Origin: an uncultured Gammaproteobacteria bacterium
GTDB taxonomy: Bacteria > Patescibacteriota > Microgenomatia > Levybacterales > GWA1-39-11
Direction: 5' to 3'
Assembly: GCA_964627245.1 (NCBI GenBank)
Contig: CAZVGS010000002.1
Location: forward strand, 26,923-90,922
DNA: 64,000 nt
The number at the start of each line of letters is the position of its first letter. Position 1 is the stretch's first letter. The translations under genes and the position numbers were made by a program. Below, in pieces: positions 5,730 through 60,139 of this stretch. Below the pieces are notes generated by a model that worked only from the letters and a program-made list of their open reading frames with translations, was not told the origin of the DNA and made no database searches.

Positions 5730-6152
5730 ATGAAAATTGTTTTTGCTTTGCTTTTGTCTTTTATTGCTCCGATTATCTTGTTGCCTGTAGAGCAAATATT
5801 GAATTATCCCCATATTATAGAAGAAGCAGTTAAGCTTCTCGCGGTAACACTAATAATCTTTCAATCAAAACAAGGCAAGAAAAATTATTTAATGGTGGCT
5901 GTTTTAGTAGGCGTACTTTTTACCATTTCAGAAAGCGTGCTCTATTTGGTTAATTCTTTCCAAATGGATAATTTTTCACTTATTCCACAAAGAATTATTG
6001 TAACCGGAATTCTTCATAGCGCCACCTGCGTCCTAATCTATATCCTGGGAAGAAAAAGCTGGTGGCTATTGGGTGCTGGATTTGTTCTTGCTGTGCTTAT
6101 TCACTATTACTTTAATATATTCATAACAAGTTACGTCCCCGTCCGCTTTTAA
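5730..6152 (+). CDS. small polytopic membrane protein, PrsW/CPBP-like motifs (EExxK ... HxxxN)
   Basis: 140 aa, 4 predicted TM helices. Contains EEAVK and HYYFN motifs reminiscent of the PrsW protease family. Weak. Confidence 0.4.
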   Translation: MKIVFALLLSFIAPIILLPVEQILNYPHIIEEAVKLLAVTLIIFQSKQGKKNYLMVAVLVGVLFTISESVLYLVNSFQMDNFSLIPQRIIVTGILHSATCVLIYILGRKSWWLLGAGFVLAVLIHYYFNIFITSYVPVRF

Positions 6153-6190
6153 ATATTTTGCAATAATTGTGGGGTTAGTATAATTGCGCT

Positions 6191-6952
6191 ATGGGAAAGC
6201 AAAAATACTTTGAAGAGCGTGAATTAAGGGTCAATCAGAAGCTGAAAATTCTACTTGAAAGAAAAGATTTTCAAACTGATATTGCAGTTTTTCGAAAGAA
6301 GTGGAACATTTCGAAAGGTGGTTTTAAAACGGAAGATGGGTATCGGGAGTGGATGGGATGGCTAGAAACACAGACTGATAAATACATTGATGAAAACTGG
6401 AGTAAATGCCGAGCGGAACTTCAAGAACTGTCAAAACAAGGCAAACTAAGCGAACGAGAGGAGTTAAATAGGAAATTTAATCATCAGTCACCTAGAAACG
6501 CTTTTCATTATGAAATCCACAATTTATTGTTTAAACATAAGATTCCAACTTCCTGGTATAGCGGAATGCGACTTTACTTGTTAAGTAATGATTTAGGTTC
6601 AGCTCGAGTACCGTTAAATAATGTTACGGTACAAATAACTTGGAATGAGCAAACAGGTGAACGCCAACTCTCCCTTCTGCTAACAGCAGATTCAACGATG
6701 GATGATGTTAAAGCTGTTTGGAAACCACTAGTTATGCCCGAGCTTAGAAAACTGCACGATTATTCTGTAGTTAAAGGCAGATACAAACCTAACCTGGAAC
6801 TTGATAAACGAGTGCATGAATTATGGAAAGCTGGTGACAATACCTATGAGCAAATTGCTGAGGTAATTAAAAGCGAATTCCCTATAAGTTCTAATTTTAT
6901 GTATACGGATGTATCTAACGCCCTTAAAAGGTATAAGAAACGCTTCGGTTAA
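6191..6952 (+). CDS. hypothetical protein
   Basis: 253-aa ORF with no recognisable motif. Sits just upstream of the MTase/terminase island. Confidence 0.45.
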   Translation: MGKQKYFEERELRVNQKLKILLERKDFQTDIAVFRKKWNISKGGFKTEDGYREWMGWLETQTDKYIDENWSKCRAELQELSKQGKLSEREELNRKFNHQSPRNAFHYEIHNLLFKHKIPTSWYSGMRLYLLSNDLGSARVPLNNVTVQITWNEQTGERQLSLLLTADSTMDDVKAVWKPLVMPELRKLHDYSVVKGRYKPNLELDKRVHELWKAGDNTYEQIAEVIKSEFPISSNFMYTDVSNALKRYKKRFG

Positions 6953-7081
6953 GAATCACGCTTAATTCGTAACGTATCGCTTCTTTTCCCCCTCCCCTAC
7001 AATTTCCTTAAACTACTGAATTCTGAAAATGTATAAGTTTTCAGTGGTTTATCCATACAATTTGAGTAGAGGTACAAAACT

Positions 7082-8368
7082 ATGATTAAACAGCCACAAC
7101 ACAATCTAAAAATTGAATATGTTGACGTAGAGAAACTGATTCCAGCTGTATATAACCCTCGCACTTGGGATGAAGCGGCAATTAAAAATCTCACATCAAG
7201 TATTAAAGGTTTTGATATTGTCGATCCGTTAATCGTTAATAATGTCAAAGGTCGGGGAAATATTGTCATCGGTGGTCACTTTAGGTTGGAGATAGCCAAA
7301 CGCTTGGGATATAAACAGGTACCTGTCGTTTACGTCACCATTCCTGACATTGATAAAGAAAAAGAATTAAACCTCAGGCTTAACCGCAATACCGGAGCCT
7401 GGGATTTTGAGCTTCTGAAAGAATTTGACGTTAATCTTCTTCTTAATGTTGGCTTTGATGATACGGACCTTTCCCATATCTGGGATGATGCGCTATCAAT
7501 TGAAGATGACAATTTCGATACTGAAAAAGCCATTGAAGAAATCGGTACTCCAAAAACAAAACTTGGGGATTTGATTAAACTCGGCAACAATTTCTTGATT
7601 TGCGGTGCTGCAACTGATCCGACAGCTGTAAAAAGACTAGTTGGAGCAAATAAGATCCATATTTTAAATTACGACCCTCCGTATAACATTTTACTTGATT
7701 ACCATAAAGGGATTGGCACAAATGGTAAATATGGAGGAAAACAGACAAATGACAATAAAACGGATGAAGACTATCGAAGTTTTCTTTTAAAAACACTTCA
7801 GAATGGGCTAATAGTTGCTAACGATGTCTGTCATGTCTTTTGCTGGTGTGATGAAACGTATATCGGATTAGTTCAGGGAATATACCAAGAACTTGATATT
7901 GAAAATAAGCGGGTGTGTTTATGGATCAAGAATAATCAAAACGCCACCCCTCAGATTGCTTTCAATAAAGCCTACGAACCATGCGTGTATGGAATTAAAG
8001 GTAAACCACATCTCGCACCAACGCCTACTAACCTGAACGAGATACTCAATAAAGAGGTCGGAACAGGTAATCGACTCCCAGATGACATTCTTGATCTCTT
8101 TAACATTTGGTTGGCAAAAAGGTTGCCCACAAGCGAGTATGAACACCCGACACAAAAGCCACCAACGGTATATGAGAAGTCATTACGTCGTTGTACGAAA
8201 CCTGGAGATTCAGTTTTGGATGTATTTGGCGGTTCAGGTACCACATTAATAGCCTGTGAGCAATTGAAACGGCGAGCATTCTTGTGCGAGTTAGAGCCGA
8301 TTTTCTGCGATGTAATCATTAAGCGATTCCAGGAATTAACCGGGAAGGAGGCAGAATATGTCATTTAA
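7082..8368 (+). CDS. ParB-like nuclease domain fused to DNA methyltransferase (beta-class N6A/N4C)
   Basis: N-terminal ParB/Srx-like region. DPPY motif (LNYDPPYN) followed by C-terminal FGGSGTT (motif I after motif IV, the beta-class order). Confidence 0.8.
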   Translation: MIKQPQHNLKIEYVDVEKLIPAVYNPRTWDEAAIKNLTSSIKGFDIVDPLIVNNVKGRGNIVIGGHFRLEIAKRLGYKQVPVVYVTIPDIDKEKELNLRLNRNTGAWDFELLKEFDVNLLLNVGFDDTDLSHIWDDALSIEDDNFDTEKAIEEIGTPKTKLGDLIKLGNNFLICGAATDPTAVKRLVGANKIHILNYDPPYNILLDYHKGIGTNGKYGGKQTNDNKTDEDYRSFLLKTLQNGLIVANDVCHVFCWCDETYIGLVQGIYQELDIENKRVCLWIKNNQNATPQIAFNKAYEPCVYGIKGKPHLAPTPTNLNEILNKEVGTGNRLPDDILDLFNIWLAKRLPTSEYEHPTQKPPTVYEKSLRRCTKPGDSVLDVFGGSGTTLIACEQLKRRAFLCELEPIFCDVIIKRFQELTGKEAEYVI

Positions 8369-9119
8369 ATTAGGTGAAATTCGCCAGCTTGGAGAGCATT
8401 ACCTCCTTTGTGGGGATAGTACTGATGAATATACAGTGAAAATGTTTATTAAAGACCTGAAGATAAAATCTGTCATCTTCGACCCACCCTATGGTGTTCA
8501 CTATACCGAAAGCAAAGAATTTCTCCAAACCGGAACTGTCAAACACAGACCAATTATCAATGACTGGATAACTTCAGAACCAGAATATTACAAGTTTTCC
8601 TACTCATGGTTATCTTCAGTTATTCCACATCTAACCAAAAAGAATTCACTGTATATTTTTAGCTCTGACATCATGCTCTTTCCGGTACGGGAAGCGATGG
8701 CTCATGCTGGTATCAGCTTCGGGCAACTTCTTGTGTGGGTAAAAAATCACAACGTTCTTGGGAGACTTGATTACTTGCCCCAGCACGAAATGGTTCTCTA
8801 TGGTTGGTATGGTACCCATGAATTTATGAAATCAAAAGACAAAAGTGTCTTACTCTGTCCAAAACCCAATAAGAGCAAATTGCACCCAACCATGAAGCCA
8901 GTACCGCTTCTGAGACGACTTATATTAAACAGTACTCAAGTTGGAGATATTGTTTTTGATGGATTTGGAGGATCGGGATCGACTTTAATTGCTTGTGAAC
9001 AAACCAAACGGAAGTGTTTGATGATTGAACTGGATCCTGAGTATTGCCAAGTCATTTGTGATCGGTTTGAAATGATGACAAAAATTAAACCTAAAGAGGT
9101 GGAAACATTAAACGTATGA
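8358..9119 (+). CDS. DNA methyltransferase (beta-class N6A/N4C)
   Basis: DPPYG motif and C-terminal DGFGGSGST. Overlaps the upstream MTase stop by 11 nt (operon). Confidence 0.8.
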   Translation: MSFKLGEIRQLGEHYLLCGDSTDEYTVKMFIKDLKIKSVIFDPPYGVHYTESKEFLQTGTVKHRPIINDWITSEPEYYKFSYSWLSSVIPHLTKKNSLYIFSSDIMLFPVREAMAHAGISFGQLLVWVKNHNVLGRLDYLPQHEMVLYGWYGTHEFMKSKDKSVLLCPKPNKSKLHPTMKPVPLLRRLILNSTQVGDIVFDGFGGSGSTLIACEQTKRKCLMIELDPEYCQVICDRFEMMTKIKPKEVETLNV

Positions 9120-40941: not shown

Positions 40942-41838
40942 TTACTTGATGCCGCGGTTTTTGTAGATAATTTCAGCTATTTTTGAAATTGTATCCTTTG
41001 CAGACTTTTCATCAACTACATTACTCGACAAAACTACTAGCGTAAATGGAGCAGTTCCTCCGGTGATTATTCCGCCATCGTGAATAAAATTTACTTCATC
41101 CCCTGTTTTGTGATAAATATGAAGCTTTTCAGGCAATAAAACGGGAATCCTATCTTCAAATTCCGTATCTTCCATATGATCCAGTAACTCAAGAGTTAAT
41201 GGCTTTGAGGTGATTTTATTTTGATAAAGCATCTGAAAGAATTTACCAATATCTCTTGCCGTTGTTTCGTTGTCAACCATGCTCGTAGAACCCATTCCTA
41301 TTTGGTAGACATATGCCTGTATATTCTCCTCACCGAGTCTAACCGTCAAAACATGTGCTGCCGTATTGTCGGATTCTTTCAACGAAAGCCTTGCTAAAGA
41401 CTGAAGCGTATACTGTCCGCCGGGCTCTTCATATCTCAAGCTCCCCGTCCCATAATCCTGAATATCTGAGGCTTGAATAATGACAGACTCCTGAAGGTCG
41501 ATTTCATCAATCGATGCTAAATAATATAAATATGCAACAATTGGAAGCTTGTTTATCGAGGCCGCAGTGACAACCGCATTAGAATTAATACTAAAATTCT
41601 CCTCAGTACTCAAATCTTCATAGTAAATACTAAAGTCACCTTTTCTGTCTTTCAAAAAATTTATTATCTCGTCTCTTATTTCTTGAGGCTCTTTTATTTC
41701 CTGCTTACCGCTTATTTTGATTGTTGGTATAAAAAGCAGATTTCTACCTAATATAAGCAGAAAGAAAGAATAAAAAAGAAGAATGAAAAATTTACGCATA
41801 TTACTCAATTGTTCTTGGCCTATACTGCAACGCTTCAA
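40942..41838 (-). CDS. class A beta-lactamase-like serine hydrolase
   Basis: N-terminal TM/signal, then SxxK-like, SDN (KESDNTA) and KTG (HKTGDE) motifs. Confidence 0.5.
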   Translation of the reverse strand: MKRCSIGQEQLSNMRKFFILLFYSFFLLILGRNLLFIPTIKISGKQEIKEPQEIRDEIINFLKDRKGDFSIYYEDLSTEENFSINSNAVVTAASINKLPIVAYLYYLASIDEIDLQESVIIQASDIQDYGTGSLRYEEPGGQYTLQSLARLSLKESDNTAAHVLTVRLGEENIQAYVYQIGMGSTSMVDNETTARDIGKFFQMLYQNKITSKPLTLELLDHMEDTEFEDRIPVLLPEKLHIYHKTGDEVNFIHDGGIITGGTAPFTLVVLSSNVVDEKSAKDTISKIAEIIYKNRGIK

Positions 41839-43330
41839 GTATATGACTTTCCTTTACACGTGTGCTTGCATTAAGATCCGCTATTGTTCTTGCAACTTTC
41901 AGTACTTTGTTAAATGACCTTGCGGATAAAGAGAGTGTTTTCATTGCCCCTTTCATTATATCCCGTGCTTTTTCATCAATTAACAGTAATTCTTTCAGAT
42001 CTCTTGTCGACATCTCACTATTCATTATGATTTTCTTGCCTAAAAATCTTTTCTTCTGCAAAGATAGCGCCTTAACGACTCTTTTTCTGATTTCTGACGA
42101 ATTTTCAGATTCTTCATTGTCATCAACCAGTTTTTCCACTTTTACCGCAGGGACATCTATATGAATGTCTATTCTATCAAGCAATGGGCCCGATAGCTTT
42201 TTTTGGTATTTCAAAACTTGCCCCGCCGAGCATGTACACACTTTTGTAGTATCTCCAAAGTATCCACATGGGCATGGATTTGCAGCCGCAACCAACATAA
42301 AACGGGAGGGGAAGTTGACCCTTTCGCGTGCCCTTGAAATACTTACTATCCCGTCTTCAAGGGGTTGGCGCAAAGCCTCAAGAACGTATCTTGAAAATTC
42401 AGGAAGCTCATCTAAAAATAAAACTCCTCTGTGTGCGAGTGATATTTCTCCCGGTTTTGGATTGGCGCTCCCGCCTACAAGACCAACGTGTGAGGTTGTG
42501 TGGTGGGGATTTCTAAATGGACGCCTTCTTAAAATTGATTTTCCCTGTAAAAGTCCCGAGATACTATATATTTTTGTAACCTCCAATGCTTCTTCAAAAG
42601 AGAGTGGAGGCAGAATAGATGGAATCGTTTTTGCAATCAATGTTTTTCCAGCCCCCGGTGGTCCTTTCAAGAGAATGTTGTGTCCTCCCGCAACGGCCAC
42701 CTCAATGGCTCTTTTAACAAAGGCTTGTCCCTTAACGTCCCTCATATCAAAATCGTATCCCTCTGCTTCTTCTTCTGCTTTCTCAAGCTCAAATTCAACC
42801 GGCTTTACCATATCAATTTTTTTCGTTCCGCTTAGATGATTGAATATTTCCTTGAGACTTTCCGGGGCGTAAATATCTACCCCATGAACAATTTCGGCTT
42901 CTTTTTGGTTGGCTTTTGGTATAAAAATGCTTTCAATTCCTCTGTCTCTTGCTTCAAGAACCATGGGCAAAACCCCTTTTGAAAGTCTGATTCTGCCATT
43001 TAAGGACAGCTCTCCAATAAATAATGCCTTATCACTATCAAATGACAACTGGCCTGATGATAATAATATTGAAATTGCTATTGGGAGATCGAATGTAGGA
43101 CCTTCTTTCGGAAGATCTCCCGGAGCAAGATTGACTGTTATTTTTTTTGCAGGAAATTCCACTCCGCTGTTTTTAATTGCTGAACGAACTCTTTCTTTTG
43201 ATTCTTCAACCGCCTTATCAGGAAGACCGACTATGGTAAAAGAGGGAAGACCATTAAGTATATCTGTCTCAACTTCTATCAAAACTCCATCAAGACCAAC
43301 CACGGTTGATGAGAGAACTTTTGACACCAT
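41801..43330 (-). CDS. comM: YifB/ComM family Mg-chelatase-like ATPase
   Basis: N-terminal Lon-like ChlI N domain, AAA+ Walker A GPPGAGKT, C-terminal Mg_chelatase_C region. Confidence 0.85.
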   Translation of the reverse strand: MVSKVLSSTVVGLDGVLIEVETDILNGLPSFTIVGLPDKAVEESKERVRSAIKNSGVEFPAKKITVNLAPGDLPKEGPTFDLPIAISILLSSGQLSFDSDKALFIGELSLNGRIRLSKGVLPMVLEARDRGIESIFIPKANQKEAEIVHGVDIYAPESLKEIFNHLSGTKKIDMVKPVEFELEKAEEEAEGYDFDMRDVKGQAFVKRAIEVAVAGGHNILLKGPPGAGKTLIAKTIPSILPPLSFEEALEVTKIYSISGLLQGKSILRRRPFRNPHHTTSHVGLVGGSANPKPGEISLAHRGVLFLDELPEFSRYVLEALRQPLEDGIVSISRARERVNFPSRFMLVAAANPCPCGYFGDTTKVCTCSAGQVLKYQKKLSGPLLDRIDIHIDVPAVKVEKLVDDNEESENSSEIRKRVVKALSLQKKRFLGKKIIMNSEMSTRDLKELLLIDEKARDIMKGAMKTLSLSARSFNKVLKVARTIADLNASTRVKESHILEALQYRPRTIE

Positions 43331-43475: not shown

Positions 43476-45230
43476 ATGGATGATGTTGATTTGATAAAAC
43501 AAAAAGTAGATGTTGCTGATCTAATCGGAAGCTACATTCCCATAAAAAAGGCCGGTAGAAATTTCAAGGCAAATTGTCCTTTCCATAATGAAAAATCCCC
43601 TTCATTTGTCATTTCTCCTGAAAGACAAATATGGCATTGCTTTGGATGTGCAAAGGGTGGAGATATTTTTACTTTTGTTGAGGAATATGAGAGGGTCGGT
43701 TTTACGGAAAGCCTAAAAATTCTAGCCGATAGGGCGAATGTAAAACTTAAAAATAATGTTTTCAGGACAAAGCAGGATGAAAAAAAGAACAGAATTTATG
43801 AGATCAATCATCTTTCTTCGCAATTTTATCATTATCTTCTAACAGAGCATAGATCGGGAAAAAAAGCGTTGGATTATGTTATGGGAAGAGGGCTTACAAA
43901 AGCCATTATTTCCACGTACGTTCTTGGTTATGCCCCTGCGGGAAACTCCCTAGTCAACTACCTTATTAAGAAAAAGGGCTATATGAGGGATGAACTGCTT
44001 GAGGCGGGAGTAGCAACTCTTAGAGGAGGAGGGATGATTGATTTTTTTCAAAACAGACTGATTTTCCCTATTCAGGATTCTAGAGGAAATTTTATTGCAT
44101 TTTCAGGAAGGGCTCTTGCCGATGAGACCATGCCTAAATACATTAACACCAAAGAAACTCCTGTTTATATCAAGGGGGACACCGTCTTTGGCCTTTTCCA
44201 GGCAAAAGAGTCCATCAAAAAAGAAGGCAGAGTCCTTGTTATGGAAGGGGAGTTTGACGCTATAACCTCCTTCAAAGAAGGCATTACCAATGCCATCGCA
44301 GTCAAAGGAACGGCCTTAACAGAAAATCAGATTCATCTCTTAAAGAGATTTGCTAAAAAATTAGTTTTCAGTTTTGATACTGACCCCGCAGGAACCGAAG
44401 CACAAAGGCGGTCAATTGCTCTTATTTCAAAAGAGGGTATTGATGCAGGCGTTGTTATTCCGCCTCAAGGGAAAGATCCCGATGAATTATTGAGAGAGAA
44501 TCCGCTTCTTTTTAAGAAAGCTTTAAAAAATGAAGTCAATATTTACGATTTCATATTAGAAAGTTCCGTCCAAAATGAAAATCCTGAAACTGTTGATGGT
44601 AAAAAACATATACTCTCCCGTACTTTAACTTTCTTGAACGATATTGAAAACGAAATAGTCAAAGAGCATTATTTCAAAAAACTTGCAAAACTACTGGATA
44701 CTTCATACGAATCGGTAGTCAGAGAAGCGGAAAAAATAAAATTGCCCGAGAAAAAAATTGAATCCAAAACCGCTGCAAAGCTCACAAAAAACAGACAAGA
44801 ATTATTGGAAGATCATCTTCTAACACTTATATTGCAGTCGTCAAAGCCGAAAAATGCGATGGCAGCAGCCGTTAGCGTCCTTGATACAGTCGATCTTGTA
44901 ACCCCAAATGCCAAAAGCATCTTTGATACATTAAGGGAATACTTCATGACCTCAGATGATTTATCGGTCACCGAAGTCAACAAGCTTTTGCATGAAAGCG
45001 TTATACCGACTTTTGATATGTATTTTTTAAATCCAATTCATCAGTTTGAAACCGGTGAGCTACACCTTCTAGAAGTAGAAAAAACTGCCCGCGCAGTCAA
45101 GCAGTCAGCCGTTAAAGAAAAGCTCAGAGAGCTTTCAGACAAAATAAAAAAGGCGGAGCAGAAAGAAGATGAAAATGAGCTTGAAAAGTTAAGAAAAGAG
45201 TTTAATTCACTAGCCCTTCATTTTAAGTAG
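43476..45230 (+). CDS. dnaG: DNA primase
   Basis: Zinc finger CPFHNEKSPSF..WHCFGC and a Toprim domain (EGEFDA). Confidence 0.85.
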   Translation: MDDVDLIKQKVDVADLIGSYIPIKKAGRNFKANCPFHNEKSPSFVISPERQIWHCFGCAKGGDIFTFVEEYERVGFTESLKILADRANVKLKNNVFRTKQDEKKNRIYEINHLSSQFYHYLLTEHRSGKKALDYVMGRGLTKAIISTYVLGYAPAGNSLVNYLIKKKGYMRDELLEAGVATLRGGGMIDFFQNRLIFPIQDSRGNFIAFSGRALADETMPKYINTKETPVYIKGDTVFGLFQAKESIKKEGRVLVMEGEFDAITSFKEGITNAIAVKGTALTENQIHLLKRFAKKLVFSFDTDPAGTEAQRRSIALISKEGIDAGVVIPPQGKDPDELLRENPLLFKKALKNEVNIYDFILESSVQNENPETVDGKKHILSRTLTFLNDIENEIVKEHYFKKLAKLLDTSYESVVREAEKIKLPEKKIESKTAAKLTKNRQELLEDHLLTLILQSSKPKNAMAAAVSVLDTVDLVTPNAKSIFDTLREYFMTSDDLSVTEVNKLLHESVIPTFDMYFLNPIHQFETGELHLLEVEKTARAVKQSAVKEKLRELSDKIKKAEQKEDENELEKLRKEFNSLALHFK

Positions 45231-45308
45231 TCTTACTTGAAAAAAGCCCAAATTTAGGTTATAATATCCGTTAATCTTAAGACGCGGGGAAATCCTGCTG
45301 TTGAGTAC

Positions 45309-46403
45309 TTGACTATGCGTGTAGGTGCTGTAAAAAACGAACATATTGACGAACTCCTGGCAACTGCCAAGAAAAAGGGCTACATAACCCAAGAAGAAAT
45401 TCTCCAAAAATTCCCAAAACCAGAACATTTTCTAGTAGAACTTGATTATCTCTATGATCAGCTTATCAAAAAAGAGGTAGATATTTTTGAGACTGTCGAG
45501 CAGGAAAAAGAAAACCACAAATCAATTGAAGACTTGGAAAAAGAGCTTGAAGCGCTCAACCTTATTCAGGGAGGAACCGTCTCAGATCCTGTCAGGATGT
45601 ATTTGAAAGAAATAGGAAGAATTCCGCTTCTTACTTTTGATCAGGAGGTAGATCTTGCAAAAAGACTTGAGGCTGGAGACGAGTCGGCAAGGAAAAAATT
45701 GGTCGAATCTAACCTTCGGCTTGTGGTTAGTATCGCCAAAAAATACGTTGGACGCGGAATGACTCTTCTCGATCTTATTCAAGAAGGCAACCAAGGACTT
45801 ATCCGTGCCGTTGAGAAATACGATTGGAAAAAGGGCTTTAAGTTCTCAACGTATGCCACATGGTGGATAAGACAAGCAATAACAAGAGCAATCGCAGACC
45901 AAGCAAGAACAATTCGCATCCCAGTCCACATGGTTGAAAACATCAACCGTACCATGCGTGTTCAAAGAAGGCTCATGCAGGAAATTGGTAGACAGCCAAC
46001 CCCTGAGGAAATCGCAAAAGAACTGGAAACCGACCCTGAAAAGGTCAGAGAAATTCTTAAAATTTCTCAACAGCCGGCATCGCTTGATACTCCTGTTGGA
46101 GATGAGGAAGATTCATATCTAGGGGACTTTATCTATGACACTACGGCTCCAACTCTTTTTGACACCGCATCTCGAGGGCTTTTGAAAGAACAGCTAAACT
46201 CGGTGTTGGGAACCTTATCCGATAGAGAAAGAAGGGTGCTCGAAGAACGCTTCGGACTTAAAGACGGAAAGCCAAAGACACTTGAAGAAGTGGGACGCAT
46301 GTTTGCTGTTACTCGTGAGCGTATAAGACAAATTGAAGCAAAGGCGTTAAGAAAACTCCGCCACCCATCCAGAGGCAACAAGCTCCGGGATTATTTAGAA
46401 TAA
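45309..46403 (+). CDS. rpoD: RNA polymerase sigma factor RpoD
   Basis: Regions 1.2 to 4 present: [53 protein letters not shown]. Confidence 0.9.
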
Positions 46404-46408
46404 TCTTA

Positions 46409-47053
46409 TTGAATATTATGAGTGCTGAAATGCGTCGTTTTTCTCATGATCCGATTGTTGATAAGGCTCTCCTTGAAGAGGTGCCTTCTTCTCATGTCTA
46501 TCCCGTTGATATTATGAATTGGGCTTTTATGAGATATCTTGAAACTGGTAATGAAAACTATGCTCACTGGACATATTTAGGATCTCGTTCTGTATATTTC
46601 TTTGAAAAAGACGGTGAATACAGATTACCCAGAGACAAGGAAGAGGATCATATCAAAAACTGCGCCAAAAGAATCTTGGAAATTGAACCTAAAAGTTTTG
46701 GACACGCAATAAAACTTATTCAAGAAGGGGCGATGCTTGTTAATCCGCTCAGCCTTAATAAACCTAATGGAGAAGACGGGCAAACTCTTGAAGGAACAAT
46801 AGGAATTGTTACTGAAGAAGTAGAAGGGGGAATAATTCGAGAAAATGACCGGGAAGAAGCATTAAGGCTGCTTGCAAGATTGGGCGAAAGAAAACGAAAT
46901 GTTTTGGAAAAAAGATTTGGCATTGGGTATGAAAGGTCTTACACCCTTGATGAAATTGGACAAGAAATTGGAGTAACAAGAGAGCGTATAAGGCAAATCG
47001 AAGCCGAGGCACTAAAAGATTTACGCAATTTTCTCACAACAGAAAAATCTTAG
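46409..47053 (+). CDS. sigma-70 region 4-only protein with an unknown N-terminal domain
   Basis: C-terminal [47 protein letters not shown] is near-identical in pattern to rpoD region 4. No region 2 or 3 is present. Confidence 0.6.
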   Translation: MNIMSAEMRRFSHDPIVDKALLEEVPSSHVYPVDIMNWAFMRYLETGNENYAHWTYLGSRSVYFFEKDGEYRLPRDKEEDHIKNCAKRILEIEPKSFGHAIKLIQEGAMLVNPLSLNKPNGEDGQTLEGTIGIVTEEVEGGIIRENDREEALRLLARLGERKRNVLEKRFGIGYERSYTLDEIGQEIGVTRERIRQIEAEALKDLRNFLTTEKS

Positions 47054-47159
47054 TAACAACCAGCATTTCAACTAAGTTAAAGTTAAGAAGTCCAACAAGT
47101 CCCCAGTTAAGACCTCCAGCCCAGACTAAAATAATTGCAACTTTGTGTAACATTTTCAT
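47034..47159 (-). CDS. DUF378-like small membrane protein
   Basis: 41-aa ORF MKMLHKVAIILVWAGGLNWGLVGLLNF.. with a strong SD (GGAGGTG) 8 nt upstream. GGLNWGLVG is the DUF378 hallmark. Confidence 0.45.
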   Translation of the reverse strand: MKMLHKVAIILVWAGGLNWGLVGLLNFNLVEMLVVTKIFLL

Positions 47160-47325
47160 ATAAATTCACCTCCCTTCATCTCTTCTTAGTAAGACACGGG
47201 CAATATTTATTTACAAGATGTACAAATGATGCAAAAAGGGACTAAGCAGAACAGAGGCTTTGCAAGCTCAAAATAATTTTGTATAATTGGATACTTTCAA
47301 TATCTATTGAAAGTTTGAAAATTGA

Positions 47326-47613
47326 TCCGCGATAGCTCAATGGTAGAGCAGGAAGCTGTAAAAAATGCAGCCCTTGAGGGAAACTTCAAGGTGAATAATC
47401 GGGCTAATTCGGGGAAACCCTAAGCATGTCGAGGGGTAATCCCGAGCTAAATTCCTAAGCCAAACTAAGGACTTGTCCTGAGCGAAGCAGAAGGATAAAT
47501 GTGTAGAGACTATATACCCGACACCTCAAATGGTGATGAGATAGTCCAAGCCTTCTAGAAATAGAGGGGTTCTTGTAACTTCAAGGTTCTAGGTTCGAAT
47601 CCTAGTCGCGGAG
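47326..47613 (+). tRNA. tRNA-Asn (GUU) interrupted by a group I intron. Exons 47326-47359 and 47576-47613.
   Basis: Exons join to a 72-nt cloverleaf: U1-A72 and G73 (Asn identity), D-arm GCUCAAUGGUAGAGC, anticodon loop CUGUUAA, T-arm CUAGG-UUCGAAU-CCUAG. Confidence 0.7.
47360..47575 (+). ncRNA. group I self-splicing intron within the tRNA-Asn anticodon loop (between positions 35 and 36)
   Basis: P1 helix: exon GCUGU (U-1 wobble) pairs with IGS GCAGC across loop AAAAAAU. R- and S-like core elements GAGACUAUAUAC / GAGAUAGUCC form P7 (GACUA/UAGUC). P9 hairpin CCUUCUA-GAAA-UAGAGGG. Terminal G at 47575. Confidence 0.65.
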
Positions 47614-49182
47614 CAAAATGGGACGATGACGATACAATAAGTCACTTTCCGCTGTTATATCAATCTTTTTCTCTTGTTCGAAAATTTTAGCTGTTAAAAC
47701 TGCTTGTTTTTTAACTTTCGAACTTTTGACTTCAACTGCTAGTTCTGACAGAAGACTGAAAGGAGCTGTGAAATTAAAGACTAACTTACCTTCATCAAGT
47801 GCTAAGTTTTCAAATACTAAGGTTATTAGCTTTCTTCTTTCATCTCTATTTCCCTTCAAATATAGTTCTTGCGCTTTTTGAGACAACTCATATAAATTAG
47901 AGCCTAATTCTTGATATTTTGTGCTTGATTGTGAGTGCTGTTTAATCGATGTTACAAGTTGATTCTTTTCTTCTGAAAACTCAGTAAATAAAGTATCGTA
48001 TTTAGCTTTCGATATAACTTCATCTAGTCTGTCTTTGTATAAATTGTCCATTCTCTTTTGTATGCGCTCTAAATTTCTATTAAGCTCTGTAATCGCTGTA
48101 TTGTTGTAATTAATCTCTTCCTTGTGAGCTTCTTTTAATGATTTTCTTATCCAGTCGATTAGCCTCACATTTTTAATTTGGAGTCCATCTAGAGCATCAA
48201 CAATCTGTTCTTCAACTTCTTTTTCTTTAGCCCATGCTTGCTGTTTGCAATCTCTATAATGATTACAGTGCCCATAGACAATTCCTTTCTGAATTTCCCA
48301 AGTGATTCGACCCTCACAGCCTACACATTTGACTATTCCTTGAAATAGAAAGTGGTGTTTTCGATATTTAGGAGTAGTTTTGCTCTTAAGAACACTATTA
48401 ACCTTAGTAAAGACCTCTTCGCTGAGAAGTGCTTCATGTTGTCCCTGATGTACATTCTTGTTCCATCTGATTTTACCAATATAGAAAGGGTCTGAAAGTA
48501 GTTGATGAATTCGACTCTTAACTAACTTATTGCCCGTATATCCACGAAGTCCTTCTTGTGACATCATCTCTGTTAGCTTGCTAAGTGAAATCTCGCCTGT
48601 TGCATAGAGTTCAAACATTCGTCTTACGAGAGGAGCTTTCTTCTCGTCTATTACATGTATCTTTCTCCCTTTTTCTCCTACACTGATGTATCCAGGAGGT
48701 GCTTTTGTTGGCATCCAACCTTGAGCTATTTTCTCTTTCTGTCCTTTCTTTACATTTTCTGATAAAAGCTTAACGTAATATTCAGCTGTAGCACATTTAA
48801 CTCTCCACATAAACCATTCGTGAGACCTTGAATCCCTGTGTAAAACACAGCCTTCTTTTGCAAGTCTTATTTGATGGTTTGAATCTTCATGAATCCATTT
48901 ATCAATAATTGGCACGTCAACAAAATTTCTTGTCAATCTATCAGTAGTCTCGACAATAACTCCAAAAATGTCTTTCTTCTTGATGTATGTAATCATTTCA
49001 TTGAATACTTTTCTTTGCATAACTCCAGAAGCTGATTCTGAAACAGCAAAGACCTTAACAACTTCAAGACCTTCTTTTTCAGCGTATTCTCGAAGATACT
49101 TCTCTTGTGCAGGAAGAGAGTAACCTGCTTCTTCCTGTTCTTTACTTGATACTCTACAAAAGATAACTGTTCTCATATACAC
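47602..49182 (-). CDS. large serine recombinase (integrase)
   Basis: N-terminal CRVSSKEQ catalytic Ser region, recombinase domain, zinc ribbon CVGCEGR..HCNHY, coiled coil. The 3' end overlaps the tRNA-Asn 3' end. Confidence 0.85.
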   Translation of the reverse strand: MYMRTVIFCRVSSKEQEEAGYSLPAQEKYLREYAEKEGLEVVKVFAVSESASGVMQRKVFNEMITYIKKKDIFGVIVETTDRLTRNFVDVPIIDKWIHEDSNHQIRLAKEGCVLHRDSRSHEWFMWRVKCATAEYYVKLLSENVKKGQKEKIAQGWMPTKAPPGYISVGEKGRKIHVIDEKKAPLVRRMFELYATGEISLSKLTEMMSQEGLRGYTGNKLVKSRIHQLLSDPFYIGKIRWNKNVHQGQHEALLSEEVFTKVNSVLKSKTTPKYRKHHFLFQGIVKCVGCEGRITWEIQKGIVYGHCNHYRDCKQQAWAKEKEVEEQIVDALDGLQIKNVRLIDWIRKSLKEAHKEEINYNNTAITELNRNLERIQKRMDNLYKDRLDEVISKAKYDTLFTEFSEEKNQLVTSIKQHSQSSTKYQELGSNLYELSQKAQELYLKGNRDERRKLITLVFENLALDEGKLVFNFTAPFSLLSELAVEVKSSKVKKQAVLTAKIFEQEKKIDITAESDLLYRHRPILLRD

Positions 49183-52304: not shown

Positions 52305-53438
52305 TTATCCAGCTTGATAGAGGGCTTGAATGTTCTTCTTATTCTTGAATAAATCAGGTTGTTTTTTATTTAACCTTTTCAATGAAGTTTTAATCGCAAA
52401 TTCTGAATTATCAATACCTATCCAGTGTCGTTGAAGTGAATCTGCCGCAACAAGTGTGCCACCTGACCCACTGAAGCAATCAAAAACAATATCTCCTTCG
52501 TTAGAAGAGGTTGATATTATCGTTTTTAGTAATTCAAGATTTTTTTCTGTAGGGTAGACTGGTCTAGTTGGGTCCTTAAATTCCCAAATGTCTTGCAACT
52601 TCTTAAATGGCATTTCGTCAGCGTAAACTTTCTTTCTTGGATTACCTGTGCTTGACCACTCGATTAAACCCTTTGCCTCCAACTCATCTAATACCGTTGG
52701 GTCATATCTCCAATGTCTTCCTTTGGGAGGAAGCATTCCTTTCCATGGCTTACCAGTATTTCCATTGCTTGTTTCACCTGGAGCATGAAGCGGATTGGTA
52801 GTATAGTAGCGTCCATTTACATCTATTTTGTTAAATAACCTACTTATCTCGCCTTCTGACCTTTTATGTTTAGGCTCATTCCAAATATATTTGTCAGTTT
52901 TAGTATAAAAAAGTATTAGGTCTTTAATGTTTCCGTAAGCTTTTCTACTAAAATTTTTAGGATTACACTTTATTCTTGTTATGTCATTTCTAAAATTTTT
53001 TTGTCCAAAGACTTCATCCATTATGACTTTTATATAGTGCCCAATTTTATAATCAATATGCAGATAAATAGAGGCTTCATCTGACATTAATTCACGGATA
53101 AAAATGAGTCTTTCACGGATAAATTCCAGAAAGTCTGCCCCAACTAGAGTATCGCTATAAGCAATGCTGTCCTTAAGACTACTGCTTACATGCGATGTTC
53201 TTTCCTCGCTACCTCTAAAAACAGTGTTTGTTGAAAATGGAGGGTCAATATAGACCAAACTGATTTTGCTCTTCAAATTAAAGTCATTAAGAAGTGTTTT
53301 CATTACTCCTAAATTATCTCCTTTAATCAACATGTCTTTTCCATCTTTATAGGAAATGTTCTCGGCATCTAGCTTTACCTGCTTAGTGTTTGAAAGTATA
53401 GATTGTTTAGTTTTCTTACCTTTATAAGTTAATTCCAT
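52305..53438 (-). CDS. DNA methyltransferase (beta-class N6A/N4C) of an R-M system
   Basis: VYIDPPFS motif (IV) followed by C-terminal FDCFSGSGGT (I). Confidence 0.8.
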   Translation of the reverse strand: MELTYKGKKTKQSILSNTKQVKLDAENISYKDGKDMLIKGDNLGVMKTLLNDFNLKSKISLVYIDPPFSTNTVFRGSEERTSHVSSSLKDSIAYSDTLVGADFLEFIRERLIFIRELMSDEASIYLHIDYKIGHYIKVIMDEVFGQKNFRNDITRIKCNPKNFSRKAYGNIKDLILFYTKTDKYIWNEPKHKRSEGEISRLFNKIDVNGRYYTTNPLHAPGETSNGNTGKPWKGMLPPKGRHWRYDPTVLDELEAKGLIEWSSTGNPRKKVYADEMPFKKLQDIWEFKDPTRPVYPTEKNLELLKTIISTSSNEGDIVFDCFSGSGGTLVAADSLQRHWIGIDNSEFAIKTSLKRLNKKQPDLFKNKKNIQALYQAG

Positions 53439-53445
53439 AGTTTTC

Positions 53446-54228
53446 TTATAATGAGTGCAAAAAATCTCTCAGAAGCAAACTGCTCAAAATGTTGTATTCT
53501 TCCTCATGCGAAGTCAAAAAACGATGAAAATTACTTCTTCCTCTCAAATAAAGTACACCATCATATATTGCTACTTTGACCGCATTAACGTTATTATTTT
53601 TCAATAAAGTTAATCCATCAGCGAACTGCCTATCTTGATGTCCTCCAAAATCAGTTAAGAATTTGGCTTCACCAATTACATATTTACCATGCATACGAGC
53701 TATAAAATCCAACCCTTTTTGCTCTTCATAGCCTAAATTATTTTTGGCAAACTGTTTAAGCTGAGCATCGCCTCCATCTAAAATCGCATCTCTTTCTGTT
53801 GCTATAAACTCAAGTTCTGGTAATACCTCTAATCCTAAAGTTTTTTGATTAAGCCACCTTCTAAAAAGAGGACCTATTTGCCTATTCGTTTCCTTTGGCT
53901 CTGAAGTGCGAGCATATATTTTCTCCAGTCCCATTTCATATAATCTGCCACAAATTCGCTTAACTGTTTCTGGATTTCTGTCTATTGCAGATTTATCTCT
54001 TCTCAAGAAAGGAATATATGAGTCCTTAATCGGAAACAATTCTAAACTAAGCAAACTCTTCATAAGCTCTGAATCGTCTCTACTCTTAAATGCTACCTCT
54101 ACATTGCCCCAAGCGGTTTCATTTACTTCTCTTATCGTATCGGGTGCCAATGGATAAACAGTAAAAAGCTCATCAAGATAATTTTTTTGATTTGCAAATT
54201 GGATACTTAAGTCTGTCCAATAATTCAT
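53446..54228 (-). CDS. type II restriction endonuclease (PD-(D/E)xK) candidate
   Basis: Sits between the C-protein and the MTase on the same strand. Putative catalytic D..IGEAK motif. Confidence 0.5.
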   Translation of the reverse strand: MNYWTDLSIQFANQKNYLDELFTVYPLAPDTIREVNETAWGNVEVAFKSRDDSELMKSLLSLELFPIKDSYIPFLRRDKSAIDRNPETVKRICGRLYEMGLEKIYARTSEPKETNRQIGPLFRRWLNQKTLGLEVLPELEFIATERDAILDGGDAQLKQFAKNNLGYEEQKGLDFIARMHGKYVIGEAKFLTDFGGHQDRQFADGLTLLKNNNVNAVKVAIYDGVLYLRGRSNFHRFLTSHEEEYNILSSLLLRDFLHSL

Positions 54229-59033: not shown

Positions 59034-59588
59034 TTGTATTACAATTGCGGTATGATGAATTCAAATCTTACAGATGAAAAATTGGTTGAACTGATTCGTA
59101 GCAAAGATAAAGAGCGGTATGCTGAAATTATCAATAGATATCAGGATAAGCTTATGAGATACACACGATATTTGATAAACGACAAAAATAAATCAGATGA
59201 TGTAGTCCAAAATACCTTCATCAAAGCCTACATTAATCTTTATGGGTTTGATACAAAAAAAAAGTTTTCAAGCTGGATTTATCGCATTGCCCATAATGAA
59301 GCCATTAATGAAGCGAAAAAGCATCACAAAGAACTACCTATGGATCACGACTTTGATGCGCCATCAAAAGAATCAATTGAAGAGGAGTTCGACAGAAAAG
59401 AAATTAATAAACAAGCACACAGCTGCTTGAGGCAGATGCCAACCATGTATTCCGAGCCGTTAGCTCTTTACTATTTGGATGAGAAGTCATATGAGGAAAT
59501 CAGTGATATTCTAAGAATACCAATGGGAACAGTCGCAACAAGAATTAATAGGGCAAAAATTTTAATGAAGAAAATATGTCAAAAATAA
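59034..59588 (+). CDS. ECF-type RNA polymerase sigma-70 factor
   Basis: Region 2 (DVVQNTFIKAYINLYGFD..SWIYRIAHNEAIN) and region 4 (YEEISDILRIPMGTVATRINRAK). Confidence 0.75.
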   Translation: MYYNCGMMNSNLTDEKLVELIRSKDKERYAEIINRYQDKLMRYTRYLINDKNKSDDVVQNTFIKAYINLYGFDTKKKFSSWIYRIAHNEAINEAKKHHKELPMDHDFDAPSKESIEEEFDRKEINKQAHSCLRQMPTMYSEPLALYYLDEKSYEEISDILRIPMGTVATRINRAKILMKKICQK

Positions 59589-60139
59589 ACTTAAAACTTA
59601 AAAATCAACAACTCAATAAGGGTCACTCCAAAATTAATTTGGAAGAAATTGTAATGAACAAAATAAAATCAGGTCAGGCGAAAATGAAACCCAAATGGTA
59701 TTTTGCAGCTGGTTCTCTGTTAATGATTATGGGTTTGGTCAGCTTAACGCTTTCTGCAATATTTTTATTTAACTTAACAGTATTTTTAGTAAGAAAGCAT
59801 GGACCGGGATATGGAAGACTAGAAATAATGCTCAACACCTTTCCTTATTGGATACCAATATTAGCTGTTTTGGGGGCGGTCTTGGGAATTTTGCTTCTAA
59901 AAAAGTATGATTTTTCCTATAATAAGAACTTTCCTCTTATATTAATGGTCTTTTTATCTTCAATAATCATTGCGGCACTTTCAATCGACTATCTAGGTCT
60001 TAATGACGTTTGGTCAAGACGCGGTCCGATGAAAAGATTTTATCAACACTTTGAAAATCAAAAACACCATTTTTTTGAAAGACGCAACAATATACAATAC
60101 AACCGCACGGAGACTATATTTCCGCAAATACGATTCTGA
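59576..60139 (+). CDS. membrane protein, putative anti-sigma factor partner of the ECF sigma
   Basis: Overlaps the end of the sigma gene and has 3 to 4 TM helices. Assigned by position only. Confidence 0.35.
   Translation: MSKINLKLKNQQLNKGHSKINLEEIVMNKIKSGQAKMKPKWYFAAGSLLMIMGLVSLTLSAIFLFNLTVFLVRKHGPGYGRLEIMLNTFPYWIPILAVLGAVLGILLLKKYDFSYNKNFPLILMVFLSSIIIAALSIDYLGLNDVWSRRGPMKRFYQHFENQKHHFFERRNNIQYNRTETIFPQIRF

Follow-up and report, generated by a model that had tools for sequence, protein, structure and literature searches.

A rare rpoD-linked sigma factor derivative lacking sigma-2 in Candidatus Levybacteria

The sigma-2 domain of a bacterial sigma factor grips the beta-prime clamp helices of RNA polymerase (RNAP), reads the -10 box and melts DNA, and region 3.2 threads the RNAP active-site cleft and RNA exit channel. 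Sigma factors of the extracytoplasmic function (ECF, group 4) class consist of sigma-2 and sigma-4, without region 3.2. A protein of the SigO type, reportedly the subject of work by MacLellan et al. in 2009, would be expected to bind the beta flap and read the -35 element and not to melt DNA. The SigO-RsoA pair reportedly drives a small set of operons, its own included, and PhyR, a degenerate sigma-like protein, titrates the partner of a real sigma factor (PMC8103513). The phage proteins AsiA and gp33 (T4) and gp39 (Thermus phage) occupy or remodel the sigma-4/beta-flap site (PMC2988021, PMC6755090, PMC3950348). Here we analyse a gene lying directly downstream of rpoD in a 64,000-nucleotide stretch of DNA (the window; contig CAZVGS010000002.1) from a member of Candidatus Levybacteria (Patescibacteria, candidate phyla radiation (CPR)). 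Its predicted product is a rare, rpoD-linked sigma derivative that lacks sigma-2 and carries an N-terminal module of its own. We found no description of sigma-2-less sigma paralogues in CPR bacteria in the literature.

A primary-type sigma C-terminal half encoded downstream of rpoD

The gene occupies positions 46418-47053 of the plus strand and encodes 211 residues from an ATG; an alternative TTG at 46409, used in the first-pass annotation of this DNA, would give 214. The ATG is more probably the true start: gene callers choose it in two independent assemblies, and the N-termini of the related proteins described below, including homologue P0024, align there. The open reading frame (ORF) is uninterrupted in both the sequence and the ORF list and ends with a stop codon at 47051-47053. 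Its position immediately behind rpoD, whose stop codon (46401-46403) lies 5 nt from the TTG and 14 nt from the ATG, is as first annotated. Two other public assemblies, from other sequencing runs, contain a near-identical intact copy with a single I-to-V change.

The C-terminal part of the protein is closely related to primary sigma factors. The only Pfam domain detected is Sigma70_r4 (PF04545), at residues 154-207 (E 7.8e-16, 57.8 bits against a cut-off of 24.1). A BLASTP alignment to the RpoD encoded in the window starts at residue 87 (211-residue numbering) and extends over 124 residues, 35% of them identical (E 3e-16). Counted from that alignment, 29 of the 54 residues of region 4 are identical (~54%), including an uninterrupted run of 11 that contains the -35 recognition helix, TRERIRQ, which is the same as in RpoD. 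This helix covers positions that we take to be the equivalents of Escherichia coli R584, E585, R586, R588 and Q589, residues that contact the -35 element.

The similarity begins well before region 4. NCBIfam RpoD models align from residue ~104-113 to residue ~207, hhalign places residues 107-211 of a profile of the protein and its relatives onto RpoD 253-364 (probability 99.4%, E 4e-21), and positions 82-207 of the same profile align with SigA 233-367 from solved holoenzyme structures (PDB chains 8x6f_E and 7ckq_F). A Foldseek search with the full AlphaFold model returned primary sigma factors only from the PDB. The sigma homology therefore spans the C-terminal ~105-125 residues, comprising the last sigma-3 helix or helices, the region 3.2 linker and the whole of region 4. 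The first-pass annotation had recognized the region 4 likeness, which our alignment bears out; it had limited it to the last 60 residues and had taken regions 1 to 3 to be absent, a description that holds for region 2 and has to be revised for region 3.2 and the end of sigma-3.

Three segments can be delimited within this half. Two predicted helices (residues 73-87 and 94-108; 46634-46741, plus strand) correspond to the end of region 3.1 and the last sigma-3 helices, as judged from AlphaFold (predicted local distance difference test (pLDDT) 70-83), BLASTP and the family profile. They are followed by the region 3.2-like linker (NPLSLNKPNGEDGQTLEGTIG...; 46742-46837, plus strand; hhalign and NCBIfam RpoD models), with a P.S(L/I)(D/N).P motif that most of the related proteins share, and by sigma region 4, with 4.1 and the 4.2 helix-turn-helix (HTH; 46838-47050, plus strand; PF04545, RpoD alignment, pLDDT 80-89). 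Coverage of sigma-3 by the profile alignments is confined to its last one or two helices and the region 3.0 helix has no counterpart; PF04539 (Sigma70_r3) matches neither the window protein nor any of 11 family members at E<=5.

An N-terminal module in place of sigma-2

The first ~75-90 residues are left unmatched by the sigma homology. Residues 1-72 (46418-46633, plus strand) form a module that we could not assign to a fold or family and that is marked by the motif ...VPSSHV..(5)..NWAFM.YL..G. With this part as the query, an exhaustive HMMER search through 1.84 billion representative proteins found only P0001, the copy from the same strain, and P0024, a 214-residue homologue with 37% identity; P0025, a 1159-residue repeat protein that matched the N-terminal part with E 5.5e-4, was judged to be a low-complexity artefact. 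The unrelated N-terminal domain reported earlier is thus confirmed as having no detectable relatives outside its family, at about half of the 150 residues then given. AlphaFold models, built from an 11-sequence alignment, show pLDDT values of 50-83 in this part when the full protein is modelled. They predict a one-turn helix at residues 3-6, helices at 12-21, 29-43 and 46-54, a beta hairpin and then the two sigma-3-like helices. When the N-terminal part is modelled alone, Foldseek finds nothing like it in the PDB or in BFVD (viral predicted structures), a weak negative because the pLDDT of that model is ~65.

The N-terminal ~90 residues might nevertheless be a sigma-2 domain that has diverged past recognition, in which case the protein would be an autonomous alternative sigma factor. 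Its 211 residues are an ECF-like size, TIGR02937 (sigma70-ECF superfamily) scores 44.0 bits, slightly over the cut-off of 42.9, and the homologue P0145 is named 'sigma-70 family RNA polymerase sigma factor' by the NCBI pipeline. The top hhalign match, which is not significant (E 0.27) and serves as a lead only, sets the family motif N..AF(L/M)....G..P over GN.GL..AV..FDP of region 2.2, and an aromatic-rich segment, NYAHWTYLGSRSVYFF, loosely recalls region 2.3. Full-length sigma paralogues also occupy the same slot in four related species (L012, L017, L023 and L038). However, the TIGR02937 match covers positions 91-164/165 only, which is the sigma-4 half. None of the 11 family members, nor the window protein, matches Sigma70_r2 (PF04542) at E<=5, the N-terminal parts of the 11 members match nothing in Pfam at that threshold, and hhalign of the N-terminal part against sigma factors gives a probability of 0.2%. 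Beyond the sigma-3-like helices ~70 residues are left, a predicted beta hairpin among them, too few for regions 2.1-2.4 plus 3.0. A cryptic sigma-2 or sigma-3 domain is accordingly not supported by Pfam, hhalign or Foldseek, a negative weakened by the low confidence of the models, and we regard an autonomous sigma factor as unlikely.

A sigma-2 domain was also sought elsewhere in the window. In all six frames, a sigma hidden Markov model (HMM) built from 14 primary-type sigma factors finds region 2 in rpoD only, with the reservation that the same HMM barely detects the window's own ECF sigma factor (E 4.4). The gene is not a frameshifted piece of a full-length sigma factor, an origin that the first-pass annotation had named as the one that would undo its reading: the stop-to-stop frame of the ORF, which starts at 46337, contains no sigma-2. 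A separate small protein could in principle supply the function instead, making the paralogue the -35-reading half of a split sigma factor like SigO in the Bacillus subtilis SigO-RsoA pair. Sigma-4 without sigma-2 is the same deficit as in SigO, and the conserved N-terminal module could serve as a docking surface for such a partner. Against this, rpoD is the only sigma-2-like ORF that the HMM finds in the window, where RsoA-like proteins, being weakly sigma-2-like, are hard to detect, and the neighbouring genes differ at every family locus with no small gene conserved among them. We find a split sigma factor highly doubtful.

A fast-evolving family linked to rpoD

The window RpoD is 76-98% identical to the RpoD proteins of 80 species-representative metagenome-assembled genomes, nearly all labelled Levybacteria or Patescibacteria. 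Inspection of these 80 related loci, together with a profile search using the N-terminal part, yielded about a dozen family sequences, 206-245 residues long and all from Levybacteria, each with the N-terminal motif, a 3.2-like segment and sigma-4. In all 12 loci that contain a member (the window, L001, L002, L008, L014, L020, L021, L022 and L083-L086) the gene lies directly downstream of rpoD; L021 has two copies in tandem. The spacer between rpoD and the family gene measures 10-14 nt in the window, L008, L022, L083 and L084, and 62-121 nt in L014, L020, L021 and L086. In L021 (~6100-6138) and L014 (~6180-6215) the family gene has a TTGAAA-17-TATAAT-like promoter of its own with the -10 box 8-9 nt before the ATG, which suggests that the mRNAs are leaderless there. 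This reading agrees with the absence of Shine-Dalgarno sequences ahead of the family genes.

A partial duplication of rpoD, as the gene was first described, can be ruled out as a recent local event: protein identity is 35%, nucleotide-level similarity is absent, and the identity matrix is star-like, the protein being about as distant from RpoD as from other family members. Over the 3.2-4 segment, downstream paralogues, truncated or full-length, are 17-38% identical to RpoD, and no pair of paralogues is closer than that except L008 and L083 (65%). The divergence is old and star-like and not the result of a fresh duplication.

RpoD is under extreme constraint. The window and L086 have 100% identical RpoD proteins at 79% rpoD DNA identity, and L008 and L083 likewise at 90%; an apparent dN (nonsynonymous divergence) of 0.051 for the window/L086 rpoD pair was disregarded, as it is contradicted by the identical proteins. 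By comparison, the family genes of L008 and L083 share 66% protein and 71% DNA identity, against 87% DNA identity in the dnaG region. The ratio of nonsynonymous to synonymous divergence (dN/dS) is 0.06-0.5 across all family pairs. This ratio shows that the gene codes for a protein and is under constraint, if a much looser one than its neighbours. Thus, the family evolves much faster than rpoD while purifying selection still acts on it. We had considered the contrast between RpoD identity (95-100%) and family protein identity (20-36%) as proof of cassette replacement and withdrew it, because the RpoD protein is so constrained; rpoD DNA is only 79-90% identical in those comparisons. Taken at the level of sequence, the gene product looks to be derived from a primary-type sigma factor, to evolve fast and to be confined to one lineage.

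A possible accessory role alongside RpoD

The rpoD gene (45309-46403, plus strand; Pfam, NCBIfam) encodes a complete primary sigma factor with regions 1.1, 1.2, 2, 3 and 4. Ahead of it are a promoter-like TTGAAA-17-TATAAT at 45237-45265 and the dnaG primase gene (43476-45230, plus strand; Pfam), and canonical TTGACA-like -35 boxes are present in the same genome. The full gene order runs from a ComM/Mg-chelatase-like gene (41801-43330, minus strand) upstream of dnaG through dnaG, rpoD and the paralogue to a truncated membrane-protein gene, a tRNA gene and a gene for a large serine recombinase. The dnaG-rpoD order, a classical arrangement, recurs in L001 and L083. The 14-nt spacer between the rpoD stop codon and the ATG (46404-46417, plus strand) has no Shine-Dalgarno sequence, and no terminator-like site was seen on the plus strand between rpoD and the ORF. 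The paralogue would thus share a transcript with dnaG-rpoD, and its translation would probably begin by re-initiation, given the 14-nt gap and the missing Shine-Dalgarno sequence.

We tentatively favour, as a possibility that falls short of being probable, a reading in which the protein is an accessory half of a sigma factor that binds RNAP, -35 DNA or both, cannot initiate transcription, and competes with or modulates RpoD from within the same operon. The protein has kept the C-terminal half, made up of the last part of sigma-3, region 3.2 and a sigma-4 domain that carries the -35-reading helix of RpoD; sigma-2 has been lost, with the ~75-90-residue module in its place. As the recognition helix is identical to that of RpoD, the same TTGACA-type -35 element should be recognized, and the protein may bind such elements. 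The retention of region 3.2, which is not known to have a role outside the holoenzyme, suggests that the protein docks on RNAP as a sigma factor does and is less in keeping with DNA binding on its own, and the protein might occupy the RpoD region 3.2/4 sites on the core enzyme, namely the beta flap and the RNA-exit/active-site channel. The absence of sigma-2 leaves it without any known means of gripping the beta-prime clamp helices, reading the -10 box or melting DNA, and alone it would not form an open complex. The outcome could be competition with the C-terminal half of RpoD, the parking or poising of RNAP at -35 elements, or the tuning of holoenzyme formation. A competitor or appropriator-like function is plausible on these grounds.

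The sigma-4 domain could alternatively act as a plain DNA-binding domain in an HTH transcription factor that works independently of RNAP, for example as a repressor on -35-like operators. Sigma-4 is a LuxR/GerE-like HTH, and 6 of the 11 family members weakly match GerE (best E 7e-4). Metagenomic proteins in which sigma-4 is fused to unrelated modules also occur, such as P0016 (XRE-HTH plus sigma-4) and P0021 (sigma-4 plus PF05066). However, region 3.2 and the end of sigma-3 would be needless for DNA binding and have been kept, and the strict linkage to rpoD would be left unexplained. An RNAP-independent regulator is in our view distinctly unlikely.

Several observations weigh against an accessory role in competition with RpoD. 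Among the 80 related species the family is present in five (L008, L014, L020, L021 and L022), and of the eight species with the closest RpoD, seven (L003-L007, L009 and L010) lack it and have unrelated genes or nothing recognizable in the slot; the eighth, L008, has a relative that is only ~20-24% identical. Absence from close relatives, which the first-pass annotation had held to count against it, is therefore found for most of them, and conservation takes the form of an older family that always follows rpoD but is sparse. Because of this distribution, the gene is dispensable. The recognition helices of the L008, L020, L022 and L084 proteins have diverged, and therefore competition for the -35 boxes of RpoD itself cannot be the function of the whole family. 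In the window protein, the two positions that correspond to K593 and K597 of the sigma-70 basic patch are acidic (E and D), and the far C-terminal helix H5, retained in other members, is shortened to NFLTTEKS. In sigma-70, H5 contributes to binding of the beta-flap tip (PMC2988021). Finally, the low confidence of the N-terminal model leaves room for a cryptic sigma-2-like fold.

The same surface could serve as a decoy or guard. Proteins that copy the C-terminal half of RpoD, presenting a 3.2/sigma-4 surface beside a variable N-terminal module, might soak up factors that target region 4, such as phage AsiA-like appropriators and anti-sigma or Rsd-like proteins, or might reversibly cap the beta flap. 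The fast evolution of the family, its patchy presence, the turnover of a recombination-prone slot, the tandem copies in L021 and a link to a PP2C phosphatase gene in L083 would all fit. We give this proposal a slim chance.

Should the favoured accessory half sigma bind RNAP, it would be a natural, cell-encoded sigma fragment, sited in the operon of the housekeeping sigma factor, in which -35 and flap binding are separated from promoter melting. It would offer a simple means of global transcription control in CPR bacteria, which have tiny genomes and few classical regulators, and would add a second natural example, after SigO-RsoA, of sigma functions being split or partly discarded. The scope of such a conclusion is set by the rarity of the family (about a dozen sequences in one candidate phylum) and by its uncultivated hosts, and every statement about function made here is one that we infer.

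The slot between rpoD and tRNA-Asn

The interval from rpoD to the tRNA-Asn gene is a rearrangement hotspot, and its contents differ in almost every species. The 3' end of the ORF is overlapped by a truncated gene for a DUF378-like small membrane protein (47034-47159, minus strand; 41 codons, with a strong Shine-Dalgarno sequence), full-length relatives of which (~66-70 residues) were found by tblastn in L011, L013, L077 and L079. The cut lies exactly where the ORF ends and marks a rearrangement junction. In five loci, the last ~24-40 nt of rpoD (...KLKDYLE stop) recur in degenerate form 36-60 nt past the rpoD stop codon (about 6107-6157 in L016, L020, L029 and L030; about 770-810 in L086), and in L020 and L086 this second copy directly precedes the family gene. 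Such copies have the look of scars left by recombination or insertion at the rpoD 3' end.

A gene in such surroundings might be a decaying, functionless remnant of a duplicated sigma gene. The variable slot contents, the patchy occurrence of the family (5 of 80 species), the truncated DUF378-like neighbour and the rpoD leftovers would be consistent with decay, as would a shorter, 152-residue protein of region 3.2 and sigma-4 in L083. Decay sits poorly with the intact ORFs of consistent length (206-245 residues) at 12 loci, with an N-terminal motif shared by members whose identity is otherwise only ~20%, and with dN/dS values below 1 in all pairs. We consider a remnant very unlikely indeed.

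Other occupants of the slot include further sigma paralogues. Full-length ones (330-411 residues, regions 1.2-4) are found in L012, L017, L023 and L038 (about 6115-8512), each ~30-38% identical to RpoD in the C-terminal part, and L038 has two in tandem. In L083 (6674-7957), rpoD and the family gene are followed by the 152-residue protein, which consists of a 3.2-like segment and sigma-4 only, and then by a PP2C-type phosphatase, an arrangement that hints at a possible phosphorylation-linked regulatory module; L008 retains a fragment of an L083-type PP2C phosphatase. In two close relatives, L004 (6127-6846) and L009 (6218-6958), the slot is taken up by a protein of ~240 residues that has an HTH-like segment at its N terminus and contains a LAGLIDADG-like motif (LYAGEGNK/GEGGK). 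This protein may be a homing endonuclease, which would make it one more mobile element at the site behind rpoD. When a phage or defence origin of the window protein was considered, its PHROG matches were to generic sigma-factor families, at residues 107-210 only.

Downstream lies the tRNA-Asn(GUU) gene (47326-47612, plus strand), whose anticodon is split by a group I intron of 216 nt (47360-47575; Rfam RF00028, 77 bits, E 9e-20) inserted between positions 35 and 36. ARAGORN misses the raw sequence and folds the spliced sequence as a normal 73-nt tRNA-Asn. The copy in L010 has no intron; L008 apparently has one, as window positions 47258-47615 (promoter, 5' exon and whole intron) align there at 78% nucleotide identity. 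At its 3' end the tRNA gene overlaps with the gene of a large serine recombinase (47602-49182, minus strand), and similar recombinases are found in the same place in L004, L005, L010, L012 and L017. The recombinase gene is followed, to ~56000, by a stretch of low G+C content (34-35%) that contains a DNA methyltransferase-like ORF (52305-53438, minus strand) and an adjoining ORF of 260 residues (53446-54228, minus strand). Window positions 47602-~56000 probably represent a mobile element that has integrated here and carries a restriction-modification system.

Further along, an ECF-type sigma factor of 184 residues with its own sigma-4 (59034-59588, plus strand) was found by eye. Its gene is overlapped by that of a downstream membrane protein resembling its anti-sigma factor (pair 59034-60139, plus strand). 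The genome thus encodes a conventional alternative sigma factor, one that is unrelated to the paralogue behind rpoD.

Comparison with known systems

The paralogue resembles ECF sigma factors in size and in its weak, superfamily-level match to TIGR02937. Its domain content is the reverse of theirs, with region 3.2 present and sigma-2 absent, and this separates it from the ECF class; the C-terminal part of the window's ECF sigma factor is only ~10% identical to it. With PhyR it shares the character of a degenerate sigma-like protein that does not, or in this case would not, initiate transcription. PhyR, however, joins an ECF-type sigma-2 and sigma-4 to a receiver domain, and Pfam scans detected neither sigma-2 nor a receiver here, so that a PhyR-type mimic does not describe the protein. 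MzaA, the ~726-residue sigma factor of the MZA anti-phage system, was likewise rejected: its model, NF041931, scores 68.4 bits against a cut-off of 800 and is matched at profile positions 647-703 only, the sigma-4 part.

The likeness to T4 AsiA and gp33 and Thermus phage gp39 is conceptual, in that all are small proteins that act, or may act, at the sigma-4/beta-flap site to alter promoter use. There is no relation in sequence or fold. The phage factors are not sigma-4 homologues, the N-terminal model had no viral structural match, and the gene described here is chromosomal and part of a cellular operon.

Likeness to SigO, which we compared by description only, lies in the combination of sigma-4 with the lack of sigma-2 in one polypeptide (PMC8103513). 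The two differ in that the window protein keeps the recognition helix of RpoD and is encoded in the rpoD operon, and in that no RsoA-like partner with sigma-2.2/2.3-like features was adjacent or detectable by the HMM in the window or among the neighbours at family loci, within the limited sensitivity of these searches for divergent partners.

The closest resemblance is to the C-terminal half of RpoD/SigA, in percentage identity, in profile alignment, in the identical recognition helix and in PDB matches, the best of which are all SigA/RpoD. Sigma-4 and region 3.2 of a functional sigma-70 factor are both present and sigma-2 is not; regions 1.1, 1.2, 2 and most of 3 are missing, the N-terminal module is unrelated and the H5 tail is shortened. 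The gene is dispensable and fast-evolving, in contrast to rpoD, whose protein is fully conserved between genomes with 79-90% rpoD DNA identity. In action, the protein would come closest to the C-terminal half of a primary sigma factor; in concept, SigO of the SigO-RsoA pair is its nearest counterpart.

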